A stretch of DNA of 64,000 bases, from assembly GCA_049322915.1 (NCBI GenBank), contig JBMOPW010000034.1:188858-252857 (forward strand), given 5' to 3'. The position numbers and the translations under genes are program-made. The notes below the pieces were generated by a model. The model was not told the origin of the DNA, searched no databases, and saw only the letters and a program-made list of their open reading frames with translations. Numbering within the stretch: position 1 is the stretch's first letter; each line of letters starts with the position of its first letter. The stretch is from Candidatus Zhuqueibacterota bacterium. Lineage in GTDB: Bacteria; Zhuqueibacterota; Zhuqueibacteria; Thermofontimicrobiales; Thermofontimicrobiaceae. This document shows positions 4,915-11,475 of the stretch, one piece after another.

Positions 4915-5331
4915 TTAGGCCACAGTCTTATCTATAAATTCTTTCAATTTATTCATGATTACGGGATCATGATCTCTTAGCTCGCACTCCCAGATGATGA
5001 AATAGCTCCATCCGCTTGCTACTAAAAGCTGATAATTTTCCTGATCACGTCTGACATTATCATGTATCTTTCCTTCCCAGAAATCTTTATTTGACCGTGG
5101 CCACTTGAAATACTTGCAACAATGCTTATGCCAGAAACAACCATGCACAAAGACAGCCTTTTTTCGACGGGAGAAAACTATATCAGGTTTGCCTGGCAGG
5201 TCTTTCCGATGAAGTCGATATCTGTATCCCCGAGACCACAGCCATTTACGAACAAACAACTCCGGTTTTGTGTCCTTGCCTTTTATCCGGGACATGTTGT
5301 AGCTACGTCGTTCCAGCGAGTGAACATCCAT
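4915..5331 (-). CDS. vsr: Very short patch repair (T:G mismatch) endonuclease
   Basis: 138 aa with MSRIKGKDTKPELFVRKWLWSRGYRYRLH...PDIVFSRRKKAVFVHGCFWHKH, the Vsr signature. Its start overlaps the upstream stop as TAATG. Confidence 0.9.
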   Translation of the reverse strand: MDVHSLERRSYNMSRIKGKDTKPELFVRKWLWSRGYRYRLHRKDLPGKPDIVFSRRKKAVFVHGCFWHKHCCKYFKWPRSNKDFWEGKIHDNVRRDQENYQLLVASGWSYFIIWECELRDHDPVIMNKLKEFIDKTVA

Positions 5332-6443
5332 TATTCTGTCTCCCCGGATGTGGCAATCACCTCTCTTATTATTTTGTTTCGATCGATTTCAGGTTGACCT
5401 TGACGGGCATAATAGGAAGAAAAACGTGACAAAATATCTTTCACGAAGTGCGGAGATATCTGAATGTGCGGCTGATTATAAGCGTTCTCGAATTGATCTA
5501 TTGTACATGTTGATATTTTTCTGAAATTAATAAATCCACCATAGAAGTAATCTGTCTCAGGCAACCAGTGAAAATAATCCGTGTAATTATTGCCAAATAA
5601 GTTGTTGAGCTTATTCTTTTTCTTGTCTTTTTGAGTAATGCCATTCAAAGCGACCTCAATAATCGAATTCCTTTCTTCAACTTCTACGAGAAGGATACGG
5701 TCGGTTTTAAAATTGCCATCGCTTCTGACAACCAGATCACAAGCCGGACTTAATAGCACATAAAGGTCATTCCCCTCCCTTTTCCTTACAATGCTTCCAG
5801 TCTTTGGGCCATCCGATAGTGGCGGATAAATATAGACTTCCTCCGGGTAACATTGATTTTCATCTTCATCAAGAATCTGTACAAGATGATTAAGCGTGAA
5901 ACGAAGTAATGCTTTTTCGGTTCTTGTAGGATTTTCTCTCCCATAAATTTCCCACACCCTTAGCTGGGGCAACAGATTCTTCACAAACACCTTATTTAAT
6001 GCCTCCTCTATCTTTCCCCTTCCCCCCATTATTTTCGTCAGTCCTGTATTATAAATTTCAAAAAACACATCCAGTATGTCTTTTTGGTAATCTGCCTCTC
6101 CTTTTTTAAGTACTTTTACCAATTCAGATTTTTCTTCCTCACCTATACTGTCCGGCGTCCCCGTTAGAATAATCACAGGTATTCTGAAAAAAGAATCTTT
6201 GATTTTTTCCAACACATCTTTTCCTCTGTTATCGCCATCAGAAAATTTCAGATCTACAATTGCACCATCAAACGAACCGTCTATTTCATTAAGAGCGTCA
6301 TCTACTGATTTGCATTCTATCAGTTTAAAAACCAGACCAATGCCTTCGTCATTTCTCTTCTTTTGGTAGATCTCAATAGAATCCCTACAAACTTTTAAAT
6401 CCGATTCGTCGTCTTCAATAATCATCAGTTTGATCTCATGCAT
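5331..6443 (-). CDS. Receiver (REC) domain protein with an unrecognised ~240-aa C-terminal domain (REC-X)
   Basis: The N-terminus MHEIKLMIIEDDESD...AIVDLKF...IPVIILTGT...KKGE has the receiver acidic pair, a putative phospho-acceptor D64, and the T and K positions. Residues ~130-370 match no family I recognise. A GGAG Shine-Dalgarno (SD) motif lies 8 nt upstream of the ATG. Confidence 0.8.
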   Translation of the reverse strand: MHEIKLMIIEDDESDLKVCRDSIEIYQKKRNDEGIGLVFKLIECKSVDDALNEIDGSFDGAIVDLKFSDGDNRGKDVLEKIKDSFFRIPVIILTGTPDSIGEEEKSELVKVLKKGEADYQKDILDVFFEIYNTGLTKIMGGRGKIEEALNKVFVKNLLPQLRVWEIYGRENPTRTEKALLRFTLNHLVQILDEDENQCYPEEVYIYPPLSDGPKTGSIVRKREGNDLYVLLSPACDLVVRSDGNFKTDRILLVEVEERNSIIEVALNGITQKDKKKNKLNNLFGNNYTDYFHWLPETDYFYGGFINFRKISTCTIDQFENAYNQPHIQISPHFVKDILSRFSSYYARQGQPEIDRNKIIREVIATSGETE

Positions 6444-6454
6444 GATTAATTCTC

Positions 6455-8626
6455 CTACTTTGGTTGCAATCTGAAAAATGCACCGTTTTCAGATTCAAAT
6501 GCCTTCAGCTCAAGTCCATTCCGGGTGGCTGCTTCACCTGCGATAGACAAGCCGAGTCCTGTACCCTCTGGTTTGGTGGAAAACTGAGGCTCAAATATTA
6601 CTTCGCTGGCTATAAGCTGAGGTTCTATACCTGGGCCGGTATCCCGATAATCAATGTATTGGAGTTCATTTCCGTCTGTTACAATATCGATTGTGATTTC
6701 CTTTTTGGGGGATTTTTTTTCATTTATCCAGTAAATACTATTATCTGCCAAGTTGGTAAAAATCGCATAGATATCCTGATGCCAACCCGTAAATCTGAAG
6801 TCACCGGAACCGTTAACCTTCACAATAATACCGCCTTTTTTCATTTCCTCGCTGAAGACTTTAAATATTTCCTCAATAATTCTTTTGAGTGGCAGTTGTT
6901 CTCTTTTGCTTCTTTTCCCGGCAGCAAGAGGATCAAGACGGCTGAAAAGTTTCACAAACACATCTGCGTTTTTACTGATACCTTCGGTAATTGGAATAAT
7001 CCTTGCCAATGTTTCAGGATCTTGCTTCTCCTTGAAGGAATTCGACCAATACTCCAGATTTGGAATTTGATTCCTGAAGTAATGCAGAGGCCTCCTGCCT
7101 TCATGCAAAATAACGTTAATTATTTTCCCTAAGGTAGCCTGTCCCTGATAAACTGCGACAGCCTGTCTTATCTCTTCAGCGATACTATTCTTGTCTTCTT
7201 CCTCTTTACTTAGAATTTGGATAATTTCATCTGTAGTTTGTAGATCCACTCCGACCTTTTCTAACTTGGCACGAATACCCCGCTTCAATTCGTCGAAAGC
7301 AAACAATCTTTCCAACTCCCGTTCCACCTTAAGAGCAGGTCTGCTCAGTCCGGCACTTTTCCGGTAGTCAAAACGGCGCTCTTCAAGACGGGCAATTACC
7401 TCGCGGGAAATTGCTTTCAGTTTTTCAAAGGCAACGTTCTCCCGCAGTCCGTCTCTGGCACTTTTTTCTATAATGGTGGATTGTTCTTCGGATTGAATCT
7501 GCACATAGCCTATAACCTGATTACTACCTATTCTCAGAGATGGGTTCTGGACGCGCTGTTCATTCAGCTTTAACCAGTCAAAGTCTGCATCGCCAAGAGG
7601 CCTGATCCGGAAGCCATTCCTGTAAACTCCGATTCCATTGTATTCGTTCAGAAGCTCTCTGGCCTGAAGCTTACCGACATAATTCCCGGATTCATCTTTC
7701 AGTCCTCGTCCAATCAAAGACTCTATGGCCTCCTTTTCCCGATCATAAACCCGGATATCAAAAAATAGCTCACCACATCCTGTCGTGCTCCCGAAATCAA
7801 ACGGAATATTTTCCTCTGTGGTGTTTCTGGCTTTTTGCAGGGAGTAGGTCAGACTTCCCTTCCCATCTGCACCGATCCTGCCGGCAATCCTGTAATCAAA
7901 CAGGTCAACAATCGGATATGGCTCCACGTCCTCGTCGATTAATTCTTCCTGACCTTCAAAGAAGTTTTCGAGTCTCAGGTGAATTCTGAAAGTATCTTTG
8001 GCTTCATCACCAGACAAAATACTGCTAACCGGCGACATTAGTTTTTTTAGCTCAAATTTAAGTTTGTCTATTTGTGTCTTATTTTTGATGTCCTTTTTTA
8101 CCCATTCGTTAATGTGTTCACCATTTCCGGTAATTGTCAGGCGTGTCCCAGACGGAAGGTCTGTTTTCTCACTTTCTACAAGTATCTCCACCTCGTCGAG
8201 ATACTGCACTTTTTCAAAACTGGACCACTCAATATAAACCGTTGTTTTTTCACTATCCGCAACGGTTTCAAGGAAGATGTCGTCGCCTAGAATAGATGCA
8301 GCGTAACGGCCAACACCTTTTCGTCCCTGCATTATCCGTCCGTTCGGGCTTTTTCTCCTTTTCAGCTTGTCATCGGTGGATGGGACCATCCATTGATTGA
8401 TTACGGTATCACTGGACATTCCGTGTCCATGATCCTCGATCGTTATTGAGTACTGATTTCGGCTTTCTGAAGCTTTAAATGTTATATATACATCGGGTGA
8501 GTCTGCATCGTACGCATTTTTTACAAGCTCAACTATAGCCGCATACCTGTCTTGTATGAGGTCCCGACCTATGGTAAGTATATGTCTGCCTGCAGGCCTA
8601 ATCAAATACGATTTTCTTGATTCCAC
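6455..8626 (-). CDS. MORC/MutL-like GHKL ATPase (HATPase_c_3-type) fused to a histidine-kinase core (DHp + CA)
   Basis: N-terminal GHKL boxes: IVELVKNAYDAD (N box), ITIEDHGHGM (G1), GRKGVGRYAAS (G2), plus a MORC-like GIGVYRNGFRIRPLG. The H-box is ILHEGRRPLHYF (H508). The C-terminal kinase ATPase has FTNLADNSIYW, YRDTGPGIEP and FSTKPEGTGLGLSIA. The GTG start overlaps the dcm TAG as TAGTG, with AAGGAGG 8 nt upstream. Confidence 0.8.
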   Translation of the reverse strand: MESRKSYLIRPAGRHILTIGRDLIQDRYAAIVELVKNAYDADSPDVYITFKASESRNQYSITIEDHGHGMSSDTVINQWMVPSTDDKLKRRKSPNGRIMQGRKGVGRYAASILGDDIFLETVADSEKTTVYIEWSSFEKVQYLDEVEILVESEKTDLPSGTRLTITGNGEHINEWVKKDIKNKTQIDKLKFELKKLMSPVSSILSGDEAKDTFRIHLRLENFFEGQEELIDEDVEPYPIVDLFDYRIAGRIGADGKGSLTYSLQKARNTTEENIPFDFGSTTGCGELFFDIRVYDREKEAIESLIGRGLKDESGNYVGKLQARELLNEYNGIGVYRNGFRIRPLGDADFDWLKLNEQRVQNPSLRIGSNQVIGYVQIQSEEQSTIIEKSARDGLRENVAFEKLKAISREVIARLEERRFDYRKSAGLSRPALKVERELERLFAFDELKRGIRAKLEKVGVDLQTTDEIIQILSKEEEDKNSIAEEIRQAVAVYQGQATLGKIINVILHEGRRPLHYFRNQIPNLEYWSNSFKEKQDPETLARIIPITEGISKNADVFVKLFSRLDPLAAGKRSKREQLPLKRIIEEIFKVFSEEMKKGGIIVKVNGSGDFRFTGWHQDIYAIFTNLADNSIYWINEKKSPKKEITIDIVTDGNELQYIDYRDTGPGIEPQLIASEVIFEPQFSTKPEGTGLGLSIAGEAATRNGLELKAFESENGAFFRLQPK

Positions 8627-9891
8627 TACAAAACCTCCTTTAATTTTTCCGCTATTCTCTGAGCAAGCAAAACAGGCACAGCGTTACCAATTTGACGGAA
8701 GGCAGGGGTTCTATGTGGAATACCGGATACACTTTCAAAAAAGTAGTCATCAGGGAATGTCTGAATTCTGGCTACTTCCCTTGGTGTCAGAGAACGGTTT
8801 TGTTCAATATCAGGGTGAATATAGTAGTGCCCGTCCTTGGCTATATGGGCGACAACAGTGTGTGAAAATTGCAGATCGCCGGCGACGACCTTAAACCTGT
8901 CCAGAAATGAATTTCTGTGCCGGTGCGTCTTCAGCCTGTCAGGGAGTTGGTTGTAGTTAAGCCTGTTCTTTTTTTTATTCCAGAGTTCAACAACGATCCT
9001 GTAAATTTCAAGGTCATGGTCTCTATTCGGTCGCGCCTGATGCCATGTAACAGATAGTGAATCATTTCTGATACAGGCATCATAGAGATATGATCCGGTG
9101 TATTTTTTGGTTCTGCAGGGACCGAAATCTCCTTGTCCGGCTTGTAATGGAGGAAGGTCCCTGAAAACCTCATAAACCATTACGTTGGTGTGCCATTTAA
9201 CAGGTTCAGGAAAAAAACCTGTACCTTTCCCCAGCTTTCCGACCAAGATGATCCTTTGCCTGCTTTGCAAAACACCATATTCTTCTGCTGCCAGTGTCAT
9301 AAACTCAGTTTCATAACCTGCATCGCGGAATAGACGCCTCATACTGTCAAAATAAAGATTACCGTTTTCATCCTTAGCTGATAGTAGACCAGTAACATTT
9401 TCAAAGACAAACCACAAAGGGCGGTAACGATTAAGAAATTCCGCGTAGTAGACGTATAGATAGTTTCTCCTGTCGCCCTTCATACGGTTTTTGTCTCTTG
9501 AGCGGCCGACGATTGAATATGCTTGGCAGGGCGGCCCTCCGATAATCAGATCAAGCTTGGCACCATTCAGTAATTCATCTGTCTTTCTGAATAGTTCAGG
9601 AAGAGATTCTTTACTGATTTCGGAATTGATGACAGAATTAATGCAATGAACAGGAACGAGGCTGTAAAGAAAGGAACGTGAAACGTTCCCCAACAAATAA
9701 TCATCATATTGCTCAACGCGGCCATGTGTCTTCAACCAGTGATAAGCCATCCGGGTTCGCAGCGTGAAGCATGCAGCCTGATCAGCTTCAATATGCGCTA
9801 TGGGACAGAATCCGGCCCGAATAAATCCTTCGGATAAACCACCAGCCCCTGCAAAAAGGTCAAGAAATATAGGATTATTGTCACTTCTCAT
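8626..9891 (-). CDS. dcm: DNA (cytosine-5)-methyltransferase
   Basis: C5-MTase motifs: DLFAGAGGLSEGF (I), GGPPCQAYS (IV), FVFENVTGL (VI), QSRQRIILVG (VIII), REVARIQTFPDDY and GNAVPVLLA (X). Confidence 0.93.
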   Translation of the reverse strand: MRSDNNPIFLDLFAGAGGLSEGFIRAGFCPIAHIEADQAACFTLRTRMAYHWLKTHGRVEQYDDYLLGNVSRSFLYSLVPVHCINSVINSEISKESLPELFRKTDELLNGAKLDLIIGGPPCQAYSIVGRSRDKNRMKGDRRNYLYVYYAEFLNRYRPLWFVFENVTGLLSAKDENGNLYFDSMRRLFRDAGYETEFMTLAAEEYGVLQSRQRIILVGKLGKGTGFFPEPVKWHTNVMVYEVFRDLPPLQAGQGDFGPCRTKKYTGSYLYDACIRNDSLSVTWHQARPNRDHDLEIYRIVVELWNKKKNRLNYNQLPDRLKTHRHRNSFLDRFKVVAGDLQFSHTVVAHIAKDGHYYIHPDIEQNRSLTPREVARIQTFPDDYFFESVSGIPHRTPAFRQIGNAVPVLLAQRIAEKLKEVL

Positions 9892-9987: not shown

Positions 9988-11475
9988 TCATTGCTGCTGA
10001 GCGGATTGCGATCGCGATGAGAAATATTTCCAGAGAAAATACACAGGAATGCCCAGCAGAACAATGCCCACTCCCGGCACGGTATATTTCGGCTTGAAAA
10101 CGAGAAGATCAATCGAGATCAATGCAATCGCCACCATATAGACCACCGGAAGGATGGGATAACCAAATGCTTTATACGGGCGCTCCGCGTCCGGACGCTT
10201 TTTCCTTAAAATGAACAGGCCAATGACGGTCAGAATGTAAAAAAAGAGAACAGCAAACATGACATAATCGAGCAGGTCGCTGTAGGTGCCGGACAGACAC
10301 AACACACTCGCCCACACGCCCTGAACCACCAGCGCAGCGCCGGGCACGGCCTTTTTATTGAGGACGCCGGCGCCTTTGAAAAACAGCCCATCCTGAGCCA
10401 TGGCATAATACACCCGCGCGCCTGCAAGAATGAGTCCGTTATTACAGCCGAAGGTCGAAATCATGATCAACACCGCCATAATCACAACGGCCGGATCGCC
10501 GAATATCATCGACGCGACGGCCGTGCCAACGCGATCATCCGTGGCGAACTGCAAACCGCGTCCCATGACAGTCGCTTCGGTCGGGCTCCCCTGCACTGGC
10601 AGCACGAGGATGTAAGCGAGATTGGCCAAAATGTACAGCAGCGTGACCGAGATCGTTCCCAGCGCCAGACTCAGCGGCATGTTTCTCTTCGGATTGATGA
10701 TTTCGCCGGCGGTGAACGTCACATTGTTCCAGGCGTCACTGGAGAAAAGCGAACCGACCATGGCTGCCCCGATCGCAGCGACAATCATCATTCCGGCGAG
10801 CGGTTCGATGGAAGCAATGGCGCCGCCGTCAATGTGAGTCCAACTCGCTCTCCAGAAATTGGAAAAATTTGCTGTAATGGCGTCGGCGTTTCTTCCAATC
10901 AAAAGGCCCAGCGCAATCAATCCGAGCAGAGCGACCGTTTTGGTGATGGTGAAGAGATCCTGCACAATCTTGCCCTGCCGCAATCCGCGGGTATTGATGA
11001 AGGTCAGAACGACAATGCTGAGGATAGCGAGCAATCGGGCTGCTGAAATTTTCAATCCCAGGATGGTGAACAGCACGTTTTTCTCGCCCAACGCTGGCAC
11101 GAACACAGCGGTGAACTTCGCGAAGGCGACCGCAACCGCCGCGATCATCCCTGTCTGAATGACCATAAACAGGGTCCAGCCGTAAAGAAAACCGACCAGC
11201 GGATTATAGGCTTCGCGAAGATAGACATATTGCCCCCCGGCTCTGGGCATCATCCCGGCGAGTTCGCCGTAACTGAGCGCGCCGAGGATGGTGATCACGC
11301 CGGTTATCAGCCAGACAAGCAGGAGGTAGCCAGGCCCTCCCACTGTCCGGGAAATATCTGCACTGACGATGAAAATGCCCGAGCCGATCATGGAGCCAAT
11401 CACAATCATGGTGCAATCAAGCAGACGTAATTCTTTTTTAAACTCAGAATGTGATGCTTTGGATGATTGGGTCAT
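9988..11475 (-). CDS. APC-superfamily amino acid permease (LAT/SteT-like)
   Basis: 495 aa, about 12 TM. MIVIGSMIGSGIFIVSADI...GALSYGELAGMMPRAGGQYVYLREAY is typical of APC amino acid transporters. Confidence 0.85.
   Translation of the reverse strand: MTQSSKASHSEFKKELRLLDCTMIVIGSMIGSGIFIVSADISRTVGGPGYLLLVWLITGVITILGALSYGELAGMMPRAGGQYVYLREAYNPLVGFLYGWTLFMVIQTGMIAAVAVAFAKFTAVFVPALGEKNVLFTILGLKISAARLLAILSIVVLTFINTRGLRQGKIVQDLFTITKTVALLGLIALGLLIGRNADAITANFSNFWRASWTHIDGGAIASIEPLAGMMIVAAIGAAMVGSLFSSDAWNNVTFTAGEIINPKRNMPLSLALGTISVTLLYILANLAYILVLPVQGSPTEATVMGRGLQFATDDRVGTAVASMIFGDPAVVIMAVLIMISTFGCNNGLILAGARVYYAMAQDGLFFKGAGVLNKKAVPGAALVVQGVWASVLCLSGTYSDLLDYVMFAVLFFYILTVIGLFILRKKRPDAERPYKAFGYPILPVVYMVAIALISIDLLVFKPKYTVPGVGIVLLGIPVYFLWKYFSSRSQSAQQQ

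Follow-up and report, generated by a model that had tools for sequence, protein, structure and literature searches.

Introduction

Kinase/receiver pairs encoded beside DNA methylases were described computationally by Bellieny-Rabelo, Pretorius and Moleleki in 2021 (PMC8011034) as HEF_HK (PF19191)/Response_reg_2 (PF19192) "two-component-system-like elements." In these pairs, a soluble kinase with HATPase_c_3, dimerization and histidine phosphotransfer (DHp), and HATPase_c domains is accompanied by a response regulator (RR)-like protein, and the two genes were adjacent in 91.6% of 644 regions (PMC8011034). C5 methylases lay upstream and Vsr genes often downstream, and a regulatory link to restriction-modification (R-M) systems was proposed; only the receiver-like part of the partner was defined, and the query was 600 amino acids (aa) long (PMC8011034). 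Here, we analyze a four-gene cassette in a 64,000-nt stretch of DNA, hereafter the window, from Candidatus Zhuqueibacterota bacterium (GenBank assembly GCA_049322915.1, contig JBMOPW010000034.1, positions 188,858 to 252,857). The cassette encodes a C5 cytosine DNA methyltransferase (Dcm), a GHKL-histidine kinase (HK), a receiver fused to an output domain X (REC-X), and the repair endonuclease Vsr. By sequence comparison, we classify it as a separate, uncharacterized and very widespread branch of methylase-linked GHKL-kinase/receiver modules.

In the Detocs system, the kinase DtcA, which has a tetratricopeptide repeat (TPR) sensor, acts with the buffer receiver DtcB and with DtcC, a receiver-purine nucleoside phosphorylase (PNP) effector that is an ATP nucleosidase. 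The Ambrosia system of Pseudomonas aeruginosa, a validated antiphage system, comprises the XRE protein AbrR, the N6 methylase AbrA, the HATPase kinase AbrB, the receiver (REC) protein AbrC with its winged helix-turn-helix (wHTH), and the HNH protein AbrD; all genes are required, the receiver mutation D60A abolishes defense, and infection induces expression (bioRxiv 10.1101/2025.09.30.679545). VcSduA, a type I-D Shedu protein, is a validated GHKL-clamp-nuclease defense protein in which an ATP-driven clamp is proposed to license the effector (PMC12137116). Iyer et al. 2008 stressed the functional link between MutL and Vsr and the recurrence of GHKL/Dcm/Vsr gene neighborhoods (PMC2292703).

Results

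The cassette comprises four tightly coupled minus-strand open reading frames (ORFs) at positions 4915-9891, in the order dcm, kinase, REC-X, vsr, as given by ORF listing and translation (Table 1). Direct reading of the junctions bears out the packing reported in a first-pass annotation of the window. AAGGAGG, a 7-nt spacer, and TAGTG join dcm to the kinase gene, with the dcm stop overlapping the kinase GTG; TAG, 11 nt with GGAG inside, and ATG separate the kinase from REC-X; and TAATG joins REC-X to vsr, with the REC-X stop overlapping the vsr ATG. By these junctions, the pair is co-transcribed downstream of dcm, is not divergent from it, and is translationally coupled to it. The GTG start is supported because the kinase N terminus aligns from residue 1 with 69 homologs. 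The cassette has a GC content of 0.422, compared with 0.49-0.51 in the flanks, is flanked by genes for an amino-acid permease and for a nucleoside transporter, and is a horizontally acquired low-GC insert. Searches at its boundaries found no tRNA, integrase, or flanking direct repeats, and the window as a whole gave no tRNA or Rfam match. No transmembrane segment is present in any of the four proteins, and the cassette had no match in 5,426 Escherichia coli genomes (megablast and blastn).

Like the HEF_HK elements, the cassette encodes a kinase of soluble architecture with a conserved His-Glu/Asp in its DHp domain, next to an RR-like gene with the receiver Asp, with a C5 methylase upstream and Vsr downstream. 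The first-pass annotation did not recognize this combination, but PMC8011034 had described pairs of GHKL-HK and RR-like genes flanked upstream by a C5 methylase and downstream by Vsr, and Ambrosia is a relative in logic; the general theme is known, since the former were described in 2021 and the latter was validated in 2025. Unlike the HEF_HK elements, however, the window proteins gave no match to PF19191 or PF19192 even at E <= 10, and neither did 12 homologs down to 25% identity; PF19191 matched its positive control, a Devosia plasmid kinase, at 7e-5, and PF19192, for which there was no positive control, matched nothing, Devosia-type partners included. The window kinase and the PF19191-matching Devosia kinase share 24.7% identity over residues 61-707 (E = 8e-26). 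The partner of the Devosia kinase has 635 aa, near the 600-aa query of PMC8011034, whereas REC-X has 370 aa, and the core of X (REC-X 211-353, with xxCDL and RxGxP) is homologous to part of this 635-aa partner family (hhalign, 94%, E = 1.3e-7). The branch represented by the window is marked by the pairing of a C5 methylase with Vsr, by a receiver-fused X output domain without an assigned fold, and by the lack of a separate nuclease besides Vsr.

The cassette and Ambrosia follow one logic, in which a single gene cluster combines a DNA methylase with a receiver protein and a histidine kinase of the Hsp90-like HATPase type. Compared by described gene content, the window differs in that its methylase is C5 and not N6, XRE and HNH proteins are lacking, the receiver bears X where that of Ambrosia has a wHTH, and Vsr is present; of Ambrosia's five genes, counterparts exist only for the kinase and the receiver. 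A still more distant plasmid locus, from Bacillus, does resemble Ambrosia in gene content, with a kinase, a REC protein of 215 aa, HNH, and an N6 methylase but no XRE regulator, and its kinase is related to the window kinase over residues 10-720 (E = 4e-29). Detocs, to which the first-pass annotation likened the cassette, has in common with it the logic of phosphoryl transfer from a kinase to a receiver whose fused effector does not bind DNA; in the window, this effector is a candidate. The likeness does not extend to composition: the window has four genes and no second, buffer receiver, X has no PNP or any other Pfam match, the sensor is GHKL and not TPR, and the genes are methylase-linked.

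To define recurrence, we scanned one genome per species, which yielded 80 loci, and mapped the four window proteins onto them. The kinase adjoins REC-X in 71 of the 72 loci with a visible position, and the one locus that departs from this is a deletion remnant. In 51/70 loci, the gene immediately upstream of the kinase encodes an orthologous Dcm. A same-strand Vsr gene directly follows downstream in 29/76 loci, and 39/76 have Vsr anywhere in the locus; the other 37 have neither Vsr nor another nuclease in view. Among 41 complete loci, the pairwise-identity matrices correlate between Dcm and HK (r = 0.85), HK and REC-X (r = 0.82), and Dcm and REC-X (r = 0.69), compared with a maximum r of 0.30 over 999 permutations, indicating that the three proteins are inherited as a unit. 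This unit is spread over >15 phyla, plasmids, and one archaeon. Hosts include Bacteroidales, Desulfobacterota, Nitrospirae, Poribacteria, Chloroflexota, Spirochaetes, Chlorobi, Verrucomicrobia, Pasteurellaceae, Yersinia, and a Methanoperedenaceae archaeon, a range that implies frequent lateral transfer; the proteins of one Bacteroidales metagenome-assembled genome are 81-87% identical to those of the window. A tblastn search of plasmids found the Dcm, HK, and RR trio kept at 25-33% REC-X identity in Campylobacter conjugative plasmids, Fusobacterium, Hymenobacter, Acaryochloris, and Bacillus (sp. H8-1); the order is HK-RR with a convergent Dcm in the Campylobacter conjugative plasmids and Fusobacterium, and Dcm-HK-RR in Acaryochloris. 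Together, adjacency, co-divergence, low GC, and spread over many phyla substantiate the first-pass view that the four genes form one conserved mobile unit.

The neighbors of the cassette are mostly other conflict genes, namely Type I HsdM/S/R, Type III Mod/Res, Toll/interleukin-1 receptor (TIR)-domain proteins, and AAA_21 ATPases. Some C5 methylase is present in 59/70 loci. The 11 without one, 10 from Poribacteria and one from an uncultured bacterium, lie in R-M islands of Type I/III that also contain TIR and AAA_21 genes, so that the pair is not mostly found apart from methyltransferases and next to ordinary regulon genes, the finding by which the first-pass annotation would have given up its proposal. 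In five Poribacteria loci (L005, L006, L022, L066, and L069; kinase at ~5800-8000), the pair stands within a Type I operon with the order (hsdS)-TIR-HK-RECX-(AAA_21)-hsdR, and in L001 the entire cassette sits between hsdM/S and hsdR. The kinase/receiver pair is also found with non-C5 methylases, and an Enterobacter mori plasmid (L081) carries an intact pair, at 62% and 46% identity, with no C5 methylase nearby.

Dcm and Vsr were identified as the first-pass annotation had stated. Dcm matches PF00145 (E = 2.7e-53) and TIGR00675 (150 bits; cut-off, 100.6) and has both the PPCQ motif with the catalytic Cys122 (codon 9526-9528) and ENV164-166; Vsr matches PF03852 (E = 1.8e-32) and TIGR00632 (148.6 bits; cut-off, 97.9). 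The Dcm target-recognition region is as conserved (0.72) as the catalytic core (0.77-0.78), which suggests that a single methylation motif probably goes with the entire cassette family. The cassette resembles Type II R-M systems of the EcoRII (dcm-vsr) type in uniting a C5 methylase with Vsr in one operon on a mobile low-GC insert; it differs in that no restriction endonuclease (REase) is recognizable and the conserved partner of Dcm is the kinase/REC-X pair. Dcm also matches the PADLOC DrmMII model PDLC02649 over its full length (E = 2.8e-163). Class 2 DISARM combines DrmMII with DrmA, DrmB, and DrmC/E; no DISARM genes lie near the window Dcm, whose neighbors are the kinase, REC-X, Vsr, and two transporters. 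PDLC02649 will therefore yield false DISARM methylase calls for this cassette family. On the cassette, PADLOC recognized the methylase, Vsr, and weakly the GHKL N terminus (as REase_II), and nothing else; none of its models matched REC-X or the kinase core.

The kinase is soluble (maximum KD19 = 1.15) and has ATPase folds at both ends (Table 1). As in MORC/paraMORC proteins, the N-terminal GHKL domain has intact ATP-binding motifs, and the N-terminal profile matches HtpG (E = 5.7e-7), MutL (E = 2.8e-5), and MORC3 (E = 5.6e-5). A profile of 19 homologs places residues 494-719 among solved histidine-kinase DHp/catalytic and ATP-binding (CA) cores (ThkA 3a0r, E = 2.6e-21). H508-E509, the N/G1/F/G2 boxes, and the N-terminal Bergerat motifs are invariant, H508 in alignments of 70 and of 19 homologs; invariant residues of the CA domain include N625/N629, D662-G-x-G666, and G688-x-G-x-G692. 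The middle domain (~142-480), possibly a clamp or S5-like transducer, is strongly conserved, and R-M islands also encode non-kinase ATP-binding proteins that have it; searches of Pfam, NCBIfam, and PDB sequences gave no match to this domain. BbrUII/HgiDII and paraMORC3/VcSduA likewise have an N-terminal HATPase_c_3-type GHKL domain followed by a middle domain, and an association with a C5 methylase/Vsr. The likeness of the window kinase to the BbrUII/HgiDII restriction enzyme family (NF050001, E = 2.1e-15) is confined to the GHKL domain, residues 20-167. In BbrUII/HgiDII and paraMORC3/VcSduA, the nuclease is fused in the same polypeptide, whereas no nuclease fold was detected in the window kinase, which ends in a kinase transmitter, with the putative effector on a separate receiver.

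The REC-X N terminus matches the CheY profile (E = 2e-4). An AlphaFold2 run with 16 sequences was too poor for use (pLDDT 65); a later model reached a pLDDT of 87.3, with the X domain confidently modeled. In this model, the receiver domain superimposes on PhoP/PhoB receivers (Foldseek TM up to 0.80) and matches CpxR as well, and X begins with two long conserved helices. The receiver residues E10/D11, D64, T94, and K113/114 are in place, and D64 is invariant down to homologs of 25% identity. Every residue needed for transfer from H508 to D64 is thus kept and conserved in homologs, and the pair appears equipped for the phosphorelay proposed in the first-pass annotation.

The REC-X family comprises 1472 clusters at 90% identity, and an X-only profile retrieved 1035 clusters (50% identity) at E <= 1e-3 from 1.84 billion representative proteins. 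Among the 150 X-profile matches listed, nearly all are ~360 aa long, with X after a receiver, and the shorter ones look like fragments. One 571-aa protein (P0177), considered as a new X architecture, was rejected as a Dcm-N/REC-X-C deletion chimera. Across homologs of 25-54% identity, D64, R181, Y204, G216, P233, C235, D236, F307, S342, R347, G349, and P351 are invariant and E202, K335, Y345, and Q348 nearly so, and the pattern in X looks catalytic rather than purely structural. A papain-like Cys-His-Asn triad was considered and rejected: H292 and N306 are invariant in the close family and replaced in Hymenobacter, Acaryochloris, Fusobacterium, and Campylobacter.

Discussion

We propose, with confidence that stands near the midpoint, that the cassette is a mobile methylation-linked immunity module in which the kinase and REC-X form a phosphorelay-gated effector arm partnered with Dcm. 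Dcm would methylate a single fixed motif in the host genome. The MORC/Hsp90-like GHKL domain and the middle domain of the kinase would act as an ATP-driven sensor of DNA state (unmethylated or foreign) or of another infection cue, a role suggested because VcSduA works in this way (PMC12137116) and because BbrUII/HgiDII enzymes have a GHKL N terminus. The kinase would autophosphorylate on His508 and pass the phosphoryl group to Asp64 of REC-X. We infer that phosphorylation turns on X, an enzyme acting on DNA or another target, as a restriction or abortive effector in the slot that the restriction endonuclease occupies in ordinary dcm/vsr systems. Vsr would be an optional accessory that repairs T:G mismatches from 5-methylcytosine deamination. 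As did the first-pass annotation, we hypothesize that methylation marks self and that the pair replaces the endonuclease.

Favoring this proposal are the coupled operon with its low GC, the complete catalytic residues, the 71/72 adjacency, the orthologous Dcm beside the pair in 51/70 loci and a C5 methylase of some kind in 59/70, the covarying matrices, the spread over many phyla, and the persistence of the trio at 25-33% identity. X itself combines invariant polar residues (C235, D236, R181, Y204, S342, and R347) with the lack of a helix-turn-helix (HTH). In Bacillus AR4-2, a more distant variant, a short REC protein and a separate HNH nuclease occupy the REC-X slot. The BbrUII/HgiDII match of the GHKL domain, the VcSduA precedent, and the loss of defense with Ambrosia D60A point in the same direction.

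Several results weigh against this proposal. No enzymatic fold could be assigned to X: as single sequences, consensus, or profile, it gave no Pfam, NCBIfam, or PDB sequence match, and Foldseek with the REC-X model against PDB and BFVD gave solely receiver-domain matches among the 50 listed. By hhalign, X matched none of the nuclease profiles compared (Vsr, HsdR-N, and Type III Res). A PD-(D/E)XK nuclease was suggested by weak RE_XamI and YaeQ matches (E = 0.02-0.17), obtained with the consensus and with 6 and 8 of the 119 members, but we rejected it as unsupported: the matches did not recur in ten diverse X-only sequences, and E254 and E256 are not conserved in distant homologs. Neither a nuclease nor another enzymatic fold was demonstrable for X in these comparisons. 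The intact pairs with no C5 methylase in view (11/70 loci and the Enterobacter plasmid) are awkward for a strictly methylation-protected nuclease. On a Rhizobium plasmid (L090, 8929-11350), a more distant variant of the pair lies beside a complete dcm-vsr-type II REase system, and there the pair resembles an add-on. Phage gained no protection from methylation by Ambrosia's own methylase, and transcriptional control is the mode of action preferred by its authors (10.1101/2025.09.30.679545).

Regulation is the alternative that survives best, although we regard it as unlikely. The pair would be a two-component system in which REC-X is a transcription factor that binds DNA through X and, on receiving a signal, switches on dcm/vsr or other R-M genes, the function favored for the HEF_HK/Response_reg_2 elements (PMC8011034) and for Ambrosia (10.1101/2025.09.30.679545). 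The two long helices at the start of X would suit such a role, and some distant variants adjoin complete R-M systems that have a nuclease of their own. Moreover, most receiver output domains bind DNA. REC-X, however, is not recognizable as the plain DNA-binding regulator that the first-pass annotation had named among the outcomes refuting its proposal: it has no HTH or other Pfam match, an HTH/winged-helix match being absent in 119 + 10 members, and an invariant Cys-Asp with several invariant polar residues is atypical of a DNA-binding domain. A regulator would control the methylase alone in the 37/76 loci that lack Vsr or another nuclease, and the pair is co-transcribed downstream of dcm and not divergent from it.

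The arrangement in Poribacteria, with the pair in Type I operons that lack a C5 methylase, raises a second alternative, as do the insertion of the L001 cassette between hsdM/S and hsdR and the existence of methylase-less intact pairs. Rather than methylation of target DNA, the kinase might watch another infection cue or whether the neighboring machinery for R-M or methylation is intact, and trigger a toxic REC-X as a guard or abortive-infection module. PrrC, which sits in the EcoprrI Type I operon, offers a precedent. Such a guard is distinctly improbable given that the pair diverges tightly in step with a single Dcm lineage that has a conserved target-recognition region, that it is translationally coupled to dcm, and that most loci lack any other R-M system to guard.

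Management of methylation damage is very improbable. Here, the GHKL domain would act like MutL, which stimulates Vsr in E. coli, and the phosphorelay would tune very-short-patch repair or Dcm. The MutL-Vsr link and the recurrent GHKL/Dcm/Vsr neighborhoods (PMC2292703) agree with this idea, as do the profile match to MutL and the presence of Vsr in the gene slot held by HNH in the Bacillus AR4-2 variant. Set against these are the lack of Vsr in about half of the loci, the travel of the pair with non-C5 methylases too, and a defense-island and plasmid context with cross-phylum mobility, which favors a conflict system. The idea that an orphan dcm-vsr pair came by chance to lie beside an unrelated two-component system, for which only the commonness of both gene types speaks, has a negligible probability and is already refuted by the same gene order in dozens of loci across phyla, with co-divergence.

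Within the proposal of a methylation-linked immunity module, a stronger version would make the cassette a distinct restriction class in which the MORC-like GHKL domain reads DNA methylation or foreignness and His508-to-Asp64 transfer licenses a new Cys-Asp effector fold on the receiver protein, whose nuclease or other DNA-directed activity is held physically apart from the sensor; we consider this possible but doubtful. Were the pair the effector arm of Dcm-marked immunity, His-Asp signaling would become a control principle of R-M, with a switchable effector. A tractable bacterial model for MORC/MutL-type GHKL ATPases that read epigenetic marks would follow, and, if X proved part of a phosphorelay-gated restriction enzyme, current defense-finder models would be missing a system present in >15 phyla. 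The family of X-domain receivers is large, extending from Enterobacterales to Poribacteria, Chloroflexota, a Methanoperedens archaeon, and conjugative Campylobacter plasmids, and its output domain lies outside Pfam, NCBIfam, PADLOC, and PDB sequences. For annotation, Dcm of this family is easily mistaken for DISARM DrmMII, and the pair is mistaken for a sensor kinase with its response regulator of the ordinary kind.

Additional features and variants

The coordinates of the cassette genes and of their principal domains and residues are collected in Table 1.

Table 1. Genes, domains, and signals of the cassette, in window coordinates
Feature	Position	Strand	Basis
dcm, C5 cytosine DNA methyltransferase, 421 aa	8626..9891	(-)	PF00145, TIGR00675
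Soluble GHKL-histidine kinase, 723 aa, GTG start	6455..8626	(-)	HATPase_c_3 + HATPase_c
REC-X, receiver fused to output domain X, 370 aa	5331..6443	(-)	Receiver profile + AlphaFold2 model
vsr, very-short-patch repair T:G mismatch endonuclease, 138 aa	4915..5331	(-)	PF03852, TIGR00632
AAGGAGG Shine-Dalgarno and TAGTG overlap, dcm stop/kinase start	8624..8640	(-)	Sequence read directly
Kinase N-terminal MORC/Hsp90/MutL-type GHKL ATPase domain, residues 29-141 (HATPase_c_3); N37, D40, D65-G67-G69	8204..8542	(-)	PF13589 7.9e-18, Bergerat motifs
Conserved kinase middle domain, ~residues 142-480, including GVYRNGFRIRPLGDxDFDWL	7186..8203	(-)	Conservation
Kinase His508 codon, predicted phospho-accepting His of the H-box (HEGRRPL)	7103..7105	(-)	Conservation, DHp/CA alignment
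Kinase C-terminal CA domain, residues 618-721 (HATPase_c); N/G1/F/G2 boxes	6464..6775	(-)	PF02518 1.1e-18
REC-X receiver domain, residues 1-125; Asp64 codon 6252-6254	6069..6443	(-)	CheY profile match, Foldseek
REC-X X domain, residues 128-355, candidate effector; Cys235-Asp236 5736-5741, R347-x-G349-x-P351 5391-5405	5379..6062	(-)	Conservation

Clustering of 15 billion proteins at 90% leaves the proteins encoded on the flanks of the cassette (9991-11475, 884-2566, and others) as singletons or almost so; for housekeeping proteins, this implies that the window derives from a poorly sampled lineage.

In viral sequences, the cassette had no match among 50,697 phage genomes, and IMG/VR held a single cassette in two near-identical records. 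These records (L092/L093, 2600-7472; contigs of 58 and 76 kb) contain the complete four-gene cassette at 72%, 68%, 45%, and 56% identity.

Directly upstream of the kinase/REC-X pair in the five Poribacteria Type I operons lie genes for one or two TIR-domain proteins, and the TIR/kinase/REC-X/Type I arrangement could be a composite defense operon. The Enterobacter mori plasmid L081 and a Klebsiella variicola plasmid (L091) carry two variants at the same plasmid site beside phosphotransferase system (PTS) glucitol/sorbitol genes: in L091, an N6 methylase is accompanied by small ORFs and a GHKL kinase with a frameshift, and L081 has the window-type kinase and REC-X and no methylase. This site looks like a swap hotspot. 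On an Agrobacterium plasmid (L087, 11026-13995), a distant kinase/RR-like pair lies near a Vsr-Dcm module with a HATPase_c_3 ATP-binding protein, with an AbiE toxin-antitoxin pair between the two modules.

Degenerate cassettes were also found (L063, 6869-8681; L003, 232-1002; L019, 5071-5802), and protein P0177 is a further example. In Desulfonema magnum, an ORF of a small-ORF family of 189-256 aa is flanked by truncated forms of Dcm (residues 9-176) and REC-X (residues 145-370), and this ORF family recurs in two other loci between Dcm remnants and the kinase.

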